39,194 nucleotides of DNA, from positions 1 through 39,194 of IMG/VR virus record IMGVR_UViG_3300048576_000459. The stretch is one strand, 5' to 3'. Positions 1 to 39,194 of this stretch are shown here, piece after piece. Positions within the stretch are counted from its first letter, which is position 1, and each line of letters opens with the position of its first letter. The notes under the pieces were generated by a model. That model was given only the letters and a program-made list of their open reading frames with translations, ran no database searches and was not told the DNA's origin. The translations under genes and the position numbers were made by a program. Source of the stretch: a virus (Duplodnaviria; Caudoviricetes).

Positions 1-450
1 ATGCAGAAGTATAGTCAGATTGATAATAAAAAAAGTCTTCCTATTATATATAAAAAAAATCATCGGGGCACATTAGTTGCTAATTTAAGGCTCAAACACA
101 ATTTAACAGCAAAAAAAATGTCATCTTTACTTAATATTACTGAGCATACTTTAAAGGAAATAGAAGGAGGTAAAAGTAAGTATGACTACTATTACTATAG
201 TAAATATTGTAGACACTTTTCAGTTGATCCATACATCTACTTAGACTATTATTCTCTTCCGGAAAAAACTTTAGCTGATAAAGTAAAGAAGTTAAAAACA
301 TTTATCGGTGTTAAATCTCTACGAGAACTAGACAAATATTTAGGATTATATAGTGGGTGCCTAAGTGATTGCTTAAGTAGAAATGTTAATAGAAATGGAA
401 TTGACAACCTTGTTACAAAAAAACTAATTTTATATAATAAAAAGAAGTAG
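1..450 (+). CDS. XRE-type HTH protein, possibly with two tandem HTH domains
   Basis: LRLKHNLTAKKMSSLLNITEHTLKEIEGG is XRE-like. A second HTH-like segment is TLADKVKKLK...SLRELDKYLGLYSGCLSD. The start cannot be verified because no upstream sequence is given. Confidence 0.7.
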   Translation: MQKYSQIDNKKSLPIIYKKNHRGTLVANLRLKHNLTAKKMSSLLNITEHTLKEIEGGKSKYDYYYYSKYCRHFSVDPYIYLDYYSLPEKTLADKVKKLKTFIGVKSLRELDKYLGLYSGCLSDCLSRNVNRNGIDNLVTKKLILYNKKK

Positions 451-477
451 AGAAATAACTCTACTTCTTTTTATTAT
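434..477. terminator. Bidirectional intrinsic terminator (perfect 19-bp inverted repeat)
   Basis: ATAATAAAAAGAAGTAGAG-aaataa-CTCTACTTCTTTTTATTAT, lying between convergent ORFs 1-450 and 461-532. Confidence 0.9.
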
Positions 478-532
478 TTCTTATTATTTTAATTTTCTTT
501 TTTCCCTCTTCATTCTTCACAATAATTAGCAA
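461..532 (-). CDS. Unannotated 23-aa basic mini-protein MLIIVKNEEGKKKIKIIRNNKKK (candidate AimX-like output)
   Basis: Hand translation: TTG start at 532, RBS AAGGGG 8 nt upstream, own sigma-A promoter (593-621) and terminator. Similar to ORF 36678-36794. Confidence 0.65.
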   Translation of the reverse strand: MLIIVKNEEGKKKIKIIRNNKKK

Positions 533-592
533 AGTATCATCCCCTTGTTTCCCATCCTGCATATATTTTTTTGTAGTTTTAACAATGAAATG

Positions 593-621
593 ATTATATA
601 AAAATTTTTTCCATTTTGCAA
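593..621 (-). promoter_or_regulatory. Sigma-A promoter for the 23-aa ORF
   Basis: TTGCAA(621-616)-17 bp-TATAAT(598-593) on the minus strand. Confidence 0.75.
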
Positions 622-624
622 ATT

Positions 625-667
625 AAAAAAAGTTGACTAAACTCTCATTGAATTTGGTCAACTTTTT
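625..667 (-). terminator. Intrinsic terminator after the pro-peptide gene
   Basis: Minus strand AAAAAGTTGACCAAAttcaatgagagTTTAGTCAACTTTTTTT: hairpin plus U tract. Confidence 0.8.
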
Positions 668-720
668 CCTTTTTTTGTAATTGTATTTTGTAGCATTTTT
701 TCAATTTCTATTTGTGATTT

Positions 721-879
721 TTACCATCCATCTGGGTCATTTACTTGTAAGTGAATTCGGTTTAAACTAGATGCTACGTAGCTTTTGCCAGTATTTGCAT
801 TTGTATTTTTATCTGCTGCAAATGCCACATTTGATAGTACCATAGCTACTGCTATTACTGTTACTATAATTTTTTTCAT
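721..879 (-). CDS. Unannotated 52-aa secreted signalling pro-peptide (AimP/Qsp/Phr-like)
   Basis: Hand translation MKKIIVTVIAVAMVLSNVAFA|ADKNTNANTGKSYVASSLNRIHLQVNDPDGW. Sec signal peptide with AFA cleavage site, RBS GGGGGTG, directly downstream of the HTH-TPR gene. Confidence 0.9.
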   Translation of the reverse strand: MKKIIVTVIAVAMVLSNVAFAADKNTNANTGKSYVASSLNRIHLQVNDPDGW

Positions 880-930
880 AAAATACACCCCCATTAAAAG
901 TTGACTTTTTTTACATTCATTCCCGTTAAC

Positions 931-939
931 ATTGTAACA
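931..939 (-). promoter_or_regulatory. Candidate extended -10 promoter of the pro-peptide gene
   Basis: TGtTACAAT on the minus strand; no clear -35 at canonical spacing. Confidence 0.45.
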
Positions 940-990
940 TAATATTGAAATTGCACGATAAAAAAATTTTTTTATTTTATTCCTTTAATT

Positions 991-2259
991 TTATTTAAGT
1001 TTATTAATTAATGCATCATTGAAATAGACACTTTTTTCCTCATTTCGATATCTATAATACTTTATAAGTTCTGCATAAATCAAATAACAATTTATATTTA
1101 GTTCATCTATCTTTTGCATTATCAATATTATGTTATCTTCATCTTCCCTTCCAATGTAAATCAACATTAAATTATGAATTATTTTTTCAACTATCTCCAC
1201 ATTCTCACCATTGTTTTTTTCCCACGCCTTTAATGCTCTTAAAAGATATATTTCAACATCTTCATTTATGAATCTAAGCACGTTTGATGCATAATATAGA
1301 TTTTCAGCTAGATACCAGTTTTTAGGATTGTTTTCCAATGACTTCTTTATCGTTGTTGCTGCATCCTTATATTTTTTTTGTTTTAAATATACCTCTGATA
1401 AATTCCTGTAAGCCATAGTCAGCAAACTTTTGTCATTAAGTTTCATCGATGGCTCTAATATTTCAATATATTCATTTGCAGCTTCTTCCAATCTATTCTG
1501 TTCAATGAGGCAATTTGCATGTAACATTTTTACATCAAGTAGCTTTTTCTCTTCCAATCTAAATTCATCTATTAATATTCTTAAATATTTTATGGATTTT
1601 TCATATCTACTCATTTTTTTATATGTTAGTGCTTTATTAAAATATATCCTCTTAAAAACCTCATCATCATTTATATTACTATTTAACTTTAAAGCATAAT
1701 CTAGCTGTTCTAACGCAACTGTATACTTCTTACAAATTGTATTATTGCGAGACTTAATTATATATAAGCCTGCTTCTTCTAATACATTTCCTGAGCTAAT
1801 ACATATTTTTAATCCACACCTACACATTTCGTCACTTTTATTATACTTTTCTTTAAAGTAATAAATATTAGCTGCTAGTTTATACATATCAATTTTCATA
1901 TTATCTTCAATGTTATATTTCTCTATTAAATCTTCTGCTTCACTCAGCTTTTTTTCAAGTGCATTTACTTCTTTGATTTCTTTTAACTCATTTATAATAT
2001 TCTTCTTTAATATATTGTTAGCTTGAATATCTTCAGTTATCATCAACTCTTCAGTTGTAATTAATCCAATATCTATTTTCTTCCTTTTTACAACTTTGTT
2101 TAAATTTTTAGCAAGCCCCACTGCTAATTTATAATTTAAATTTTTCTTATCATTTTCAATTCGACTAATTAAATATTTCGTGCAAACTCCCTCTGCAATT
2201 TCTTCTTGAGTTGCTCCAATAAGATTTCTAATATTTTTCAATTTTACATTCGGTGACAT
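991..2259 (-). CDS. RRNPP-family HTH-TPR peptide-sensing regulator (AimR/Qsr-like)
   Basis: N-terminal XRE HTH (LKNIRNLIGATQEEIAEGVCTKYLISRIEN), then TPR-like helical repeats (IYFNKALTYKKMSRYEKSIKYL; AYRNLSEVYLKQKKYKDAATTIKKSL). About 420 aa, adjacent to a pro-peptide gene. The true start may be ATT at 2277. Confidence 0.88.
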   Translation of the reverse strand: MSPNVKLKNIRNLIGATQEEIAEGVCTKYLISRIENDKKNLNYKLAVGLAKNLNKVVKRKKIDIGLITTEELMITEDIQANNILKKNIINELKEIKEVNALEKKLSEAEDLIEKYNIEDNMKIDMYKLAANIYYFKEKYNKSDEMCRCGLKICISSGNVLEEAGLYIIKSRNNTICKKYTVALEQLDYALKLNSNINDDEVFKRIYFNKALTYKKMSRYEKSIKYLRILIDEFRLEEKKLLDVKMLHANCLIEQNRLEEAANEYIEILEPSMKLNDKSLLTMAYRNLSEVYLKQKKYKDAATTIKKSLENNPKNWYLAENLYYASNVLRFINEDVEIYLLRALKAWEKNNGENVEIVEKIIHNLMLIYIGREDEDNIILIMQKIDELNINCYLIYAELIKYYRYRNEEKSVYFNDALINKLK

Positions 2260-2307
2260 GATCTCATTTTCAAAAATTGTTTTCTCCCCCTTTTTAAACT
2301 TGGTAAT

Positions 2308-2336
2308 ATTTTATATATGCTCGAATACCATGTCAA
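2308..2336 (-). promoter_or_regulatory. Sigma-A promoter of the receptor gene
   Basis: TTGACA(2336-2331)-17 bp-TAAAAT(2313-2308). Confidence 0.8.
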
Positions 2337-2475: not shown

Positions 2476-3123
2476 CTAATTTTCTAAATTGTTTATAGCG
2501 TATTGTGCTTCTTCTTCAGTAAATTTTTCACCTGCCTCAGATACTAATTGGTCATGGATAGCACTCTTAGACATACTCATTTTATTTTGATATGATTTAG
2601 CTTTAGCTAATGCATTCTTTTTCCAATCTGCTTTTACATTATCTACAGCATACTGTGCAGCTTCTTTAGGAAATTTTTCTCCAGCATCTGATGTTAATTG
2701 CTCATATAAACCTTTTTTAGATAAATTCATTTTGTTAGCATAAGTATCTGCTTTTTTTAATGCTGATTGATATTCCTTAGGTATATTATCTTTTGCTTTC
2801 TTAGCATCTGCATCTGCCTTCGCCTTCGCTTTTGCTTCTTCATCTGCTTTTTGTTTAGCAACTTCTGCTGCTTTTTCTTCTTCTGTTTTCTCTTTTGGTT
2901 GTTCTTGTACAGTTGCAGTTTCAGTTTTTGTTGTTGCAGTTTTACTATCTTTCTTGCCACCCATATTAGATATTAATACTATTGCAAAAAATATTGAGAT
3001 TACTATTTTAGCAACCTTATTCCATCTGCTATATTTCCACATAAGAAAGAGTCCTACTGGAAAAAAGAAAATTAGAAATAATATAATTGCTAAGTTTTTT
3101 TCATACCATTTTTGATTCATCAT
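2476..3123 (-). CDS. Ltp-family surface-exposed protein (putative superinfection exclusion)
   Basis: Two C-terminal Ltp repeats (ALKKADTY...LSKKGLYEQLTSDAGEKF..EAAQYAVDN; ALAKAKSY...MSKSAIHDQLVSEAGEKFTEEEAQYAINNL) and two N-terminal TM helices. Confidence 0.85.
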   Translation of the reverse strand: MMNQKWYEKNLAIILFLIFFFPVGLFLMWKYSRWNKVAKIVISIFFAIVLISNMGGKKDSKTATTKTETATVQEQPKEKTEEEKAAEVAKQKADEEAKAKAKADADAKKAKDNIPKEYQSALKKADTYANKMNLSKKGLYEQLTSDAGEKFPKEAAQYAVDNVKADWKKNALAKAKSYQNKMSMSKSAIHDQLVSEAGEKFTEEEAQYAINNLEN

Positions 3124-36065: not shown

Positions 36066-36310
36066 TTTACTTTTGTAAGTCTTAAAATTTCTATGCAGAA
36101 TTTAAGAATTGCTGTTGCTCTGTGTATAGTAATTGAATTTCCCTTAAATTCATTAATTATATTTTTCGCAATAGACTCTTCTACTGAATTTTGTATTGAA
36201 ATTCCATTGTAATTAATGCAATTTATTGTATTTATTACTGCTTTCATTTCTTTTGAAACAGACTGCTCTTGAACTGGTACTTCAGGAGCAGTTTCTTTTT
36301 TCTTTGCCAC
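36062..36310 (-). CDS. Hypothetical protein
   Basis: AAGGAGGGGAG RBS; GTG start overlaps the abrB stop. Confidence 0.72.
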   Translation of the reverse strand: MAKKKETAPEVPVQEQSVSKEMKAVINTINCINYNGISIQNSVEESIAKNIINEFKGNSITIHRATAILKFCIEILRLTKVN

Positions 36311-36555
36311 TATCTCCCCTCCTTAATATCTTTCATGCAACTTTTGCATATGTTCTTACCCTTGAAATTGACTACGTTACCTGCTTCTCCACAGAATACA
36401 CAGCTTGGCTCATATTTCTTTAATATGATTTCTTCACCTTCTACATAGATTTCTAAAGAATCTTTTTCTGCTACATTTAATGTTCTTCTAGTTTCTATTG
36501 GGATAACTATTCTCCCTAAATCGTCCACTCTTCTTACTACTCCTGTACTTTTCAT
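36310..36555 (-). CDS. abrB: AbrB-family transition-state regulator (clostridial type with C-terminal CxxC pairs)
   Basis: MKSTGVVRRVDDLGRIVIPIETRRTL...LEIYVEGEEIILKKY..SCVFCG...ICKSC. Confidence 0.93.
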   Translation of the reverse strand: MKSTGVVRRVDDLGRIVIPIETRRTLNVAEKDSLEIYVEGEEIILKKYEPSCVFCGEAGNVVNFKGKNICKSCMKDIKEGR

Positions 36556-36677: not shown

Positions 36678-36794
36678 TCACTTTCTATTCCCACAAACTA
36701 TATCTGCTGCTTCTTTTCTTCTGTCTTCCCCATTGCAAGTACTGACTACATACACTTTTCTTTTACCTTCAATGCAAGCCACATGTATTTTCAT
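36678..36794 (-). CDS. Unannotated 38-aa protein MKIHVACIEGKRKVYVVSTCNGEDRRKEAADIVCGNRK
   Basis: Hand translation; GAGGGGAG RBS within the end of cro; N-terminus similar to ORF 461-532. Confidence 0.7.
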   Translation of the reverse strand: MKIHVACIEGKRKVYVVSTCNGEDRRKEAADIVCGNRK

Positions 36795-36999
36795 TCAATT
36801 CTCTCCCCTCCGAAATTATTTTTTGAAGTTCGTCTAAGGACATATCAAGTCCCTTGGCAATCTTAACAGCCGTAGAAAGCTTAATGTCTTTTCTTGTGCC
36901 GTTAATGAATTGACTTAAAGTTGAATCTGCAATTCCAGCCTTTTTACAAAGTTCTCCGCTAGCTATATTTTCCTCTTGTAAATACTTTTTTAAACCCAT
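36769..36999 (-). CDS. Cro-like XRE HTH regulator
   Basis: ELCKKAGIADSTLSQFING..KDIKLSTAVKIAKGL; divergent from cI; AAAGGAGGG RBS. Confidence 0.88.
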   Translation of the reverse strand: MGLKKYLQEENIASGELCKKAGIADSTLSQFINGTRKDIKLSTAVKIAKGLDMSLDELQKIISEGRELNENTCGLH

Positions 37000-37014
37000 T
37001 TTGCCCTCCTTTCT

Positions 37015-37198
37015 TTCACATTTGTGAATAACTTACTTTTATTTTATTCTCATTCGTGAAAGCGTGCAACCTTCAATTTTCCCTATTATGTTACATTAGC
37101 ATTGTTTTTCTAGGTTTTATTTTGCTTTTATACGTTTTGCTTTTCCGTTCACATTCGTGAAAATATTTTAGTATTTCTGTTTACTTTCGTTTCGTGAA
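37015..37198. promoter_or_regulatory. Four operator-like sites TTCAC-N4-GTGAA in the genetic switch
   Basis: 37015 TTCACATTTGTGAA; 37047 TTCTCATTCGTGAA; 37148 TTCACATTCGTGAA; 37185 TTTCGTTTCGTGAA. Confidence 0.8.
37041..37069 (-). promoter_or_regulatory. Early lytic (cro) promoter
   Basis: TTGCAC-17 bp-TAAAAT with operator 2 in the spacer. Confidence 0.75.
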
Positions 37199-37208
37199 AG
37201 GATATAAT
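37180..37208 (+). promoter_or_regulatory. cI/integrase promoter
   Basis: TTTACT-17 bp-TATAAT with degenerate operator 4 in the spacer. Confidence 0.65.
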
Positions 37209-37236
37209 ATCAATAGAAATAGGAACTACGCTTATT

Positions 37237-37268
37237 AAGTAAATTTTGAAAAGAAGTAAATTTTGAAA
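37237..37268 (+). repeat. 15-bp direct repeat in the cI leader
   Basis: AAGTAAATTTTGAAA at 37237-37251 and 37254-37268. Confidence 0.85.
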
Positions 37269-37284
37269 GAGGTAAATATTAAAT

Positions 37285-37647
37285 ATGAGTATTATAGGAG
37301 AAAACATTAAAAAATTAAGAACTGAAAAAGGATATAGTATGAATGAACTTGCTAATTTATCAGGAAAAGGGGTTTCGACTATAAGTCAGATTGAATCTGG
37401 CAAAAGGAAAAACTTATCAGGTGAAACAATTAGTGCAATTGCAGCCGCTTTAGAAACAACCCCAGATGGGTTAATGTCTGTTGCCGATGGAGTACATGAA
37501 GTAACTGATTTACTAGATATTATAAAGTACATTTTAGAGGATGAAGAAGTAAGTATTAATGATGTAACTATGACTAAAGAGGAAAAAAACCAATTCTGTT
37601 TTGCTGCGGAAGTTGCAATGAATACAATTATAGCTAATAGGAAGTGA
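37285..37647 (+). CDS. CI/ImmR-like XRE repressor
   Basis: IGENIKKLRTEKGYSMNELANLSGKGVSTISQIESG; short acidic C-terminal domain with no S24 peptidase. Confidence 0.9.
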   Translation: MSIIGENIKKLRTEKGYSMNELANLSGKGVSTISQIESGKRKNLSGETISAIAAALETTPDGLMSVADGVHEVTDLLDIIKYILEDEEVSINDVTMTKEEKNQFCFAAEVAMNTIIANRK

Positions 37648-39194
37648 TTTACATGAAAAAACGAGTAGCTATTTACTGTAGAGTTAGTAGTGATGACCAA
37701 AAAGAACGAGAAACTATTGAAAATCAAGTTGACATTTTGAGAACATATGTTGAAATGAAAGAGGATCTAGAAATATATAACGAATATCTCGATGACGGCG
37801 TAAGTGGAACTATTGCTTTCGAAGATAGAAAAGGTGGCAGTTTAACTCTTAATGATGCTCAAAACGGTTTATTTGATATTGTCTTAGTATATAAAGTTGA
37901 TCGTTTTGGCAGAGACACCTTGAGTGGACTACAAGCTGTAGAAAAAATTAGAAAGTATAATGTTGAAATAGTTTCTCTAACTGAACCTTTTGATCTAAAT
38001 ACTCCGGTTGGAAGATATCAATTTATTAACTATCTAAACATGGCAGAGCTTGAAAGAAATAATATATTAGATAGAATGTTTTTAGGAGCAACCAGAGCTG
38101 CTAAACAAGGTCGTTGGCTAGGTGGTATAGTTCCTTACGGTTATTACGTCGACAAAAAGCATTTTTTGCAAATAAATGAATATGAAGCAAACGTAGTAAG
38201 AAAGATTTATGATATGTATGTAAATGATAGAATGACAGTGCTTGACATAACAGTATATTTAAATAGCGTTAACATTCCTTGCAACTATGCTGCACGTGGA
38301 ACTGGCAAAAGGAACGCTGGTGAAAAGAAAAGTCTTTGGTCGCCAACCACAGTACAAAGAATACTTACATCCACCACATACATGGGAATACACGAATATG
38401 GTAAACGTTCTACTAAAAGAAAAGAAACAATAGTAAGAGAAGTTCCTCAAATAATACCGATAGAAATATTTGAGCAAACTAAACAAATAAAAAAAGAGAA
38501 TACTAGAATATTGAAAAAGAATAGTCCTAACAGAGAATTTTTACTTAGGACATTATTAAAGTGTGCTGATTGTGGTAAAACTTATTACGGGATTTTTTAC
38601 AGAAAAAGTCCAAGTGTTTATTCTTGCAGTGGTAAAAACCACTTAAACAAAAAATTGTATAATATTAAATGTAATAACGTTAACCTAAATGCTGAAGATA
38701 TAGAAGAACATATATGGGGAATGTGTAAAAAAATACTTATGAATTTTGATGAATACACTATAGATTCTTCTTCTAACGACGAAAGAACATCTATTGGGAA
38801 TGAATTGAGAGCACTAAATGAAAAGATAAACACATTTGAAGATGAAAAATCCAACATTTTAAAATTATACAGAAAAAAAATAATAGGTGATAAGGAAGTT
38901 GAAGAGCAACTAGAAGATATAAAAAAAGAACATGATAAAGTGCGGAATTTAGTTCTAATAACTAAGAATAAATTAAATTCTCTAGATGATAAAGATTCAA
39001 TTATAACCGAGTTTAAAAGTAAATTTGATTTTTATAAAGAAAAAATTGAGAATTTATCTACAGAGGAAAAAATGCAAGTAATTAGAATGCTAATTAGGCA
39101 GATTACTGTAATTCCTAAAATTGAAGATTGCAAAAAAATTGGCGTCTTACATATAGATTTCAATTTATCTGACTTAATATTCGCAAGGACATAA
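37644..39194 (+). CDS. Large serine recombinase (integrase)
   Basis: YCRVSS catalytic motif, DRFGR, GGIVPYGY recombinase domain, CADCG..YSC..C zinc ribbon, coiled coil; start at GTG 37644 or ATG 37653. Confidence 0.96.
   Translation: MIYMKKRVAIYCRVSSDDQKERETIENQVDILRTYVEMKEDLEIYNEYLDDGVSGTIAFEDRKGGSLTLNDAQNGLFDIVLVYKVDRFGRDTLSGLQAVEKIRKYNVEIVSLTEPFDLNTPVGRYQFINYLNMAELERNNILDRMFLGATRAAKQGRWLGGIVPYGYYVDKKHFLQINEYEANVVRKIYDMYVNDRMTVLDITVYLNSVNIPCNYAARGTGKRNAGEKKSLWSPTTVQRILTSTTYMGIHEYGKRSTKRKETIVREVPQIIPIEIFEQTKQIKKENTRILKKNSPNREFLLRTLLKCADCGKTYYGIFYRKSPSVYSCSGKNHLNKKLYNIKCNNVNLNAEDIEEHIWGMCKKILMNFDEYTIDSSSNDERTSIGNELRALNEKINTFEDEKSNILKLYRKKIIGDKEVEEQLEDIKKEHDKVRNLVLITKNKLNSLDDKDSIITEFKSKFDFYKEKIENLSTEEKMQVIRMLIRQITVIPKIEDCKKIGVLHIDFNLSDLIFART

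Follow-up and report, generated by a model that had tools for sequence, protein, structure and literature searches.

Peptide control of the choice between lysis and lysogeny has been shown in Bacillus phages that carry the receptor AimR. In the arbitrium systems of SPbeta and phi3T, AimR antiterminates and AimX acts through MazEF (PMC9232636, PMC10769878); the AimR operator consists of two 6-bp arms separated by a 25-bp spacer (PMC9232636). An extended arbitrium of Bacillus phages is composed of AimR-AimP-AimX-AimC-AimL, whereby AimX (29-80 aa) binds the C-terminal domain of a short repressor (Kabel et al., 10.1101/2025.11.23.689978); the accessible text of that report makes no mention of clostridia. 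The QssR/QssP systems of Clostridium saccharoperbutylacetonicum have been linked to solvent formation, motility, sporulation, and downstream spo0E genes, and overexpression of QssR lowered qssP1/2/5 in one medium and raised the downstream spo0E genes, while qssP1/2 rose in PG medium (Feng et al. 2020, PMC7206700). Qss5 is predicted to be prophage-borne, for which hijacking of sporulation has been proposed (10.1101/2021.07.15.452460). QssR, with AGF59421.1 as the QssR5 reference, and AimR fall in separate clusters (PMC10075063). QsrB of C. acetobutylicum is counteracted by its own peptide, the active QspB being a 7-9-mer (PMC7376267). In the literature searched, with subscription journals outside its range, no description was found of clostridial peptide control of lysis-lysogeny, a QssR operator, a link between QssR and an antirepressor, or the mini-protein family reported below.

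The locus described here resembles the QssR/QssP systems in its gene order, a receptor that is 50% identical over its full length, a homologous propeptide, and the DPDGW end of QssP3; it differs in that its downstream gene is a phage mini-ORF, no operator or phage-repressor link being seen in the accessible text on those systems (PMC7206700). With QsrB/QspB it shares a clostridial HTH-TPR receptor, a downstream propeptide, and L, P, and a terminal W in the C-terminal peptide region, although QsrB/QspB represents a separate subfamily (PMC10075063), known for host phenotypes only. Its likeness to extended arbitrium, as far as that system is described, comprises the succession of receptor, propeptide, terminator, and same-strand small ORF, a divergent cro-like gene, and a short, non-cleavable repressor with a helix-hairpin-helix C-domain (80-140 aa there, 120 aa here). 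However, the receptor belongs to another subfamily, the mini-protein (23 aa, basic, predicted beta-hairpin) is unlike AimX, and the repressor/cro pair (36769-37647) is found at the other prophage end (approximately 2 kb away in the circle) and is not immediately convergent. A LexA site precedes the small ORF in some members of extended arbitrium, whereas no LexA-type box is present here.

General features of the prophage

The window, i.e. the whole stretch of 39,194 nt that was analysed, equals the complete virus record IMGVR_UViG_3300048576_000459 and represents an apparently intact 39-kb serine-integrase prophage of the siphovirus type. The right end carries a serine integrase, a repressor, and a cro-like gene, and the left end a receptor-propeptide-mini-ORF cassette. 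Between both ends, genes for replication, packaging, head, tail, and lysis were retrieved, followed by a gene coding for an Ltp-type superinfection-exclusion lipoprotein (2476-3123, minus strand; strong promoter of its own), which immediately precedes the receptor gene, and then by the cassette.

According to Pfam, PHROGs, and a comparison with unsplit relatives, the large serine integrase (37644-39194, plus strand) is a truncated prophage form, and the frame at 1-450 (plus strand) encodes its double-HTH tail, marking the left prophage end. Indeed, P0092 (668 aa) matches the integrase of the window at 63% and frame 1-450 at 41% in one chain, and P0088, P0096, and P0103 also carry integrase and tail as one chain. 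An interpretation of frame 1-450 as an AimC-like convergent repressor, based on its Xre-like look, was rejected on account of these four proteins. Integration thus separates the serine integrase from its double-HTH tail, and the free phage would encode a fusion of approximately 665 aa. As frame 1-450 belongs to the integrase of this same phage, from which it has been severed, sequence comparison places the left attachment site at approximately position 1 and the cassette inside the prophage. A position outside attL as a core host locus, which the sequence-only reading had named as speaking against a phage communication cassette, was thus not found. In the complete phage G004, a 7-bp core occurs in frame at both ends, with halves of the interrupted host gene outside (L076:1-172 and L078:17486-17719, both open). 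An automatic search for att cores in the relatives yielded mostly A/T-rich chance words, and G004 alone was checked in frame.

Receptor and propeptide genes

The receptor gene (991-2259, minus strand) encodes 422 aa from its ATG codon and is preceded by a predicted sigma70-like promoter (2308-2336, minus strand; 11/12 consensus matches). An N-terminal Xre HTH (weak, under the Pfam cut-off) and TPRs (above the cut-off) were detected, confirming the HTH-TPR gene with its own promoter that had been read from the letters alone. An in-frame ATT at 2277 follows a GGGGGAG ribosome site, and relatives P0003 and P0005 display the same pattern; translation therefore probably starts there, giving 428 aa as in the relatives. 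The protein is 49.8% identical to AGF59421.1 (QssR5; also the receptor of record L003) over 422 aa, i.e. its full length, which by sequence places it in the QssR subfamily and not with AimR. Its AlphaFold model (pLDDT 92.9) is all-helical, consisting of an HTH and a TPR superhelix, and matches NprR (Z 24.1, rmsd 8.0, 338 residues aligned) and RapI (Z 23.1), with the eukaryotic LGN above both. AimR was absent among the fold matches listed, which are dominated by generic TPR proteins, and from the 35 PDB sequence matches (E up to 1). Hence, of the arbitrium-like RRNPP receptor proposed earlier, the RRNPP type holds, given 422 aa with TPRs above the Pfam cut-off (250-500 aa with TPRs being expected) and the adjacent propeptide, but the family is QssR instead of AimR. 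Residues N249 and N286 are invariant among the relatives, which originate from Clostridium, and by analogy these residues would fit as part of the predicted peptide groove. The receptor had no match in cultured phage records, and single-sequence viral scans were empty. Among the sequencing runs listed with the receptor (shares up to 0.10), none was of RNA, and four contained scattered pieces of relatives.

The propeptide gene (721-879, minus strand), 111 nt downstream of the receptor gene, encodes 52 aa with a predicted Sec signal (n, h, and c regions and an A-x-A site by inspection) and the C-terminus LQVNDPDGW, which harbours the predicted signal peptide. It is preceded by a predicted extended -10 promoter (931-939, minus strand), a motif that 36 of 38 loci carry in the gap separating the receptor and propeptide genes. 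Of 43 distinct receptor entries, 38 have a homologous propeptide of 49-64 aa behind the receptor, and 35 of these 38 display an A-x-A site, so that the unannotated ORF with a Sec-like signal noticed from the sequence alone represents a conserved gene. The five other entries comprise two that are cut short or fragmentary, one damaged copy, and two without a propeptide within 1.5 kb. The match of the propeptide with the PhrK model was far under the cut-off. By analogy with QspB (PMC7376267), the mature peptide may count 7-9 residues.

The peptide ends cluster by receptor clade in a tree of 35 full-length receptors, a pattern for which descent alone can account; the covariation of receptor and peptide that the sequence-only reading called for is thus seen as a grouping only. 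Seven propeptides end in GW. The last five residues of the peptide of the window (DPDGW) are those of QssP3, and loci L060 and L065, with the same last five residues, contain both published qssP3 primer sites. Consequently, the DPDGW end foreseen in a peptide such as (V)NDPDGW is present but is not private to this phage. Systems of the QSS3 type ending in DPDGW are found at the ends of provirus records (L091:7356-7520, L092:7341-7505, and L065), so that QSS3 may itself be phage-derived, judging from these positions. One propeptide displays a doubled C-terminal motif (L005:9375-9569), and several loci (L024, L030, L063, and L070) contain extra, decayed propeptide copies.

A predicted operator for the receptor

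Two copies of a dyad, composed of 6-bp arms around a 19-bp spacer, flank the propeptide gene. The first one (O1, 900-930) starts directly after the -10 box of the propeptide, a repressing position, and forms no RNA hairpin (-0.8 kcal/mol). The second one (O2, 632-662) is centred approximately 61 bp before the next predicted start, lies ten bases upstream of the -35 box of the mini-ORF, and also supplies the arms of the propeptide terminator, so that its symmetry is explicable by the latter role alone. This terminator, a hairpin with a T-run at approximately 675-625 (-18.6 kcal/mol), was not listed by the terminator scan, although it corresponds to the terminator after the propeptide that had been noticed earlier. 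A 6-bp dyad with a long spacer, downstream of the propeptide and near a terminator, also occurs in SPbeta and phi3T (PMC9232636), albeit with a spacer of 25 bp versus 19 bp here (18-19 bp in relatives); unlike in those phages, the present dyad coincides with the terminator arms, has a second copy over the propeptide start, and is followed by a separate promoter-like site.

By count alone, two dyads are not significant (11/100 shuffles), the search pattern having been derived from O2. Nevertheless, no further copy occurs within two mismatches over the 39 kb of the window, including the cro/repressor switch, abrB, and the integrase. Moreover, O1 matches the O2 region of its own locus at 8.8/12 positions versus 7.1/12 between loci (27 of 38 loci with both anchors; 0/20000 permutations), with a poor match in several of the 27. 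The distance between O1 sequences tracks that between recognition-helix residues 27-33 of the receptor (r 0.62; partial r 0.56 given the TPR distance; 0/5000 permutations), and none of 53 other residue spans of the receptor reaches a partial r of 0.56 (best 0.38). These Mantel tests, from which relatedness is not fully removed, were run on those loci (21 of 36) whose O1 is clear and whose HTH is complete. Because of this covariation with the recognition helix across loci, the dyad is considered the predicted operator of the receptor.

Mini-ORF, repressor, and early genes

The mini-ORF (461-532, minus strand) encodes a basic protein of 23 aa (net +7; predicted beta-hairpin), a candidate antirepressor. 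Its start codon, TTG, follows a GGGGATG site, and its stop codon falls within a bidirectional terminator (434-477; -23.6 kcal/mol on one strand and -22.6 kcal/mol on the other) common to the mini-ORF and the integrase tail. Its predicted promoter (593-621, minus strand; 10/12 consensus matches) lacks a LexA-type box; as the region contains 32 promoter-like matches versus 25 in shuffles, this match alone means little. The same layout is found in 27 of 38 loci. An origin as an artefact of the A-rich arm of the terminator was rejected, since homologues exist, although the final lysines do fall in that arm. These homologues, which occupy the equivalent position in 19 further elements, contain an invariant GK and form two sequence classes, all basic; hence, the separately promoted 23-aa ORF of the sequence-only reading is a real and conserved gene. 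Provirus G135, with a related repressor and tail and without a receptor, possesses an 18-codon homologue at the same place.

The repressor (37285-37647, plus strand; 120 aa) contains an Xre HTH, the only domain recognised by Pfam, and no autocleavage domain. According to its model, the C-domain is an acidic helix-hairpin-helix, with a net charge of -8 in residues 65-105, and its fold matches include the AimC entries 9iaq and 9sf2, mostly through the HTH. No recognised antirepressor or ImmA-type protease was retrieved among the scanned genes of the window. The cro-like gene (36769-36999, minus strand; Pfam, PHROGs) is divergent from the repressor gene and directly followed by an uncalled early gene of 38 aa (36678-36794, minus strand), detected by a profile match and related as a paralogue to the mini-ORF through its N-terminal hairpin (z 4.0; 0/500 shuffles). 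This paralogue follows cro in the window and in most relatives, and early genes partly resembling it occur in G105 and G190, which have the same integrase and other repressors. The early operon also encodes an AbrB-like transition-state regulator (36310-36555, minus strand), without a receptor dyad nearby.

A search of 383 scored Clostridiaceae genomes revealed integrase tails in 39, and 30 tail loci, two more regions, the window, G004, and G135 were examined, of which 34 elements were paired with an integrase end, many by genome instead of by contig. The mini-ORF, whose second class was chosen by eye, was present in 20 of 21 elements with a repressor C-domain as in the window (the exception being G300), across two integrase groups, and in none of 13 elements with related integrases and without this repressor, among which G330 was counted in spite of a weak profile match (7e-5). 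As the profile was built from 17 repressors, the seven matches of the second group alone are independent of it, and the elements being related, the split does not reflect 34 independent events. Two elements without the mini-ORF carry an ImmA-like gene next to another repressor (sequence, by eye). The repressor is the likely target of the mini-protein, in view of this co-occurrence and the opposite charges, and this is the most tentative step of the proposal below.

A LexA-type box (at most one mismatch, within 200 nt upstream of the mini-ORF) was found in 11 of 18 receptor-less loci versus 3% in shuffles, and no receptor was found in the flanks of these 18 loci. Neither of the two receptor-bearing loci had such a box, a weak result (approximately 15% by chance), as 7 of the 18 receptor-less loci also lack it; none was detected in the cassette or the switch region of the window (at most one mismatch). 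By sequence, the dyad occupies the place of the LexA-type box upstream of the mini-ORF of the window.

Gene orders in related loci

All parts of the cassette recur in other elements. The complete phage G004 has the layout of the window with its own dyad and mini-ORF, its receptor being 59% identical. Three further QssR loci (L002:2583-5222, phage record G133; L017:2349-4973, also represented by L018; and L026:461-3222) contain a receptor, a propeptide, and an ORF of 23-37 aa preceded by a LexA-type box, together with an Xre gene in convergent and a further gene in divergent orientation, i.e. the full gene order defined for extended arbitrium in the accessible text (10.1101/2025.11.23.689978), with a QssR receptor. 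In L017, the small ORF and the first divergent gene are paralogues (z 10.5); the idea that the small ORFs of L002, L017, and L026 are sequence mimics of the repressor C-terminus was unsupported (z 0.1-1.1). Across the family, a Spo0E-like gene is found downstream of 23 of 38 QssR loci and a convergent HTH gene in only 7 of 38, the former indicating that, from gene context, host control is the usual setting of QssR. In locus L004 (3397-8774), two QssR systems stand in tandem; their peptides and dyads differ, and a Spo0E-like gene with a LexA-like leader site is found behind each of them. QssR loci show mobility in relatives, where degenerate or duplicated copies are frequent.

Proposed mechanism and alternatives

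The favoured explanation, with a probability of roughly 0.45, is a convergent arbitrium-type induction switch, in which the peptide-free receptor would turn on an antirepressor mini-ORF that the peptide silences. The propeptide would be exported, trimmed to a C-terminal 7-9-mer ending in DPDGW, and re-imported. Without peptide, the receptor would occupy both dyads, which would damp the propeptide promoter and turn on the mini-ORF, either via activation from approximately position -61 or via antitermination as with AimR. The basic mini-protein would attach to the repressor (120 aa) at its acidic oligomerisation domain and free the cro operon, whereupon the early paralogue after cro would lock in lysis. 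When lysogens accumulate, the peptide would take the receptor off the DNA, favouring lysogeny. The acidic repressor facing a basic mini-protein, the operator statistics, the co-occurrence of mini-ORF and repressor type, the LexA-type boxes of the receptor-less loci, the lack of a cleavage domain in the repressor, the gene order of L002, L017, and L026, and the layout of G004 count for this switch; the mini-ORF being shorter than AimX and not adjacent to the repressor gene in the prophage, and the Spo0E-like genes behind 23 of 38 loci, count against it, as do the early genes of G105 and G190. In favour of its sign are the lowered qssP1/2/5 and raised spo0E genes upon overexpression of QssR in one medium (PMC7206700) and the inhibition of QsrB by its peptide (PMC7376267). 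The sequence-only reading had left undecided whether the cassette controls induction or host physiology; on comparative grounds, control of induction is favoured, since the conserved mini-ORF tracks the repressor type, often with a LexA-type box in the relatives.

The usual context of the family suggests a host-manipulating moron, in which the receptor-propeptide pair would act on sporulation, solvent, or motility genes or on the phage abrB homologue (36555-36310), listening to or jamming host signals of the QSS3 type, the link with the mini-ORF being incidental. The phenotypes of the QssR family (PMC7206700), the sporulation-hijacking proposal for prophage Qss5 (10.1101/2021.07.15.452460), and the QssP3-like peptide end agree with this, but it is rather unlikely, as no Spo0E-like gene follows, O2 is located at the promoter of the mini-ORF in the window as well as in G004, and, among the sites searched, all in the window, the dyad occurs at O1 and O2 and not at abrB or the cro/repressor switch. 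The sign of the switch might also be the opposite, with a peptide-bound receptor activating the mini-ORF and lysogens inducing at high density, according to PlcR/Rgg logic. Several RRNPP regulators are indeed activated by their peptides, and without a LexA-type box a switch that is on in the peptide-free state would destabilise isolated lysogens. The rise of qssP1/2 upon receptor overexpression in PG medium (PMC7206700) points in the same direction. Yet O1 begins right behind the -10 box, the closest tested clostridial case, QsrB, is inhibited by its peptide (PMC7376267), and L002, L017, and L026 copy the arbitrium layout that is on without peptide, which makes this sign unlikely.

The receptor could also control a mini-protein with a role other than that of antirepressor, either in excision (as a directionality factor) or in regulating the integrase tail. 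The mini-ORF is located at the prophage end opposite to the integrase, convergent on the integrase tail, comparable to sprB at the prophage end of SPbeta, and a search of the window yielded no other directionality factor (best E 0.13). However, the absence of the mini-ORF from all 13 elements with related integrases and without the repressor type of the window renders this function quite improbable, and the second integrase group contains a better candidate, namely a different gene of 53 aa that is kept in repressor-less elements. This integrase-adjacent gene of 48-53 aa (L160-L175, L078:14685-14834) is, from its position and conservation, a candidate directionality factor. Finally, given the mobility and frequent decay of QssR loci, the pair might be vestigial cargo, inserted upstream of the mini-ORF without any remaining control of relevance; this is least probable, as all frames are intact, both dyads fit the helix type of the receptor, and the layout is kept in G004 despite 59% receptor identity.

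Implications

Both the QssR receptor family and the arbitrium design are known; new are their combination in a different host class with a predicted operator and effector, and, as separate points, the dyad as a predicted operator of the QssR family, the association of mini-ORF and repressor type, and the dyad in the place of a LexA-type box. A wider interpretation, offered tentatively, is that clostridial phages independently evolved arbitrium-type communication by recruiting QssR pairs to drive small antirepressors at least twice, namely at the prophage end (window and G004) and in the immunity region (L002, L017, and L026). In the phage of the window, the peptide would then have replaced the SOS input altogether, and, as its signal ends like QssP3, this phage may also answer the peptide of other lysogens or of the host. 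If true, a QssR-based switch would mean that the same design arose again from another receptor family. The small size of all cassette parts allows their reconstruction as reporters in a laboratory host, and the predicted operator makes the regulon of the QssR family in butanol-producing clostridia directly testable. Finally, a family of candidate antirepressors of 18-40 aa would explain how prophages without a cleavable repressor are induced.
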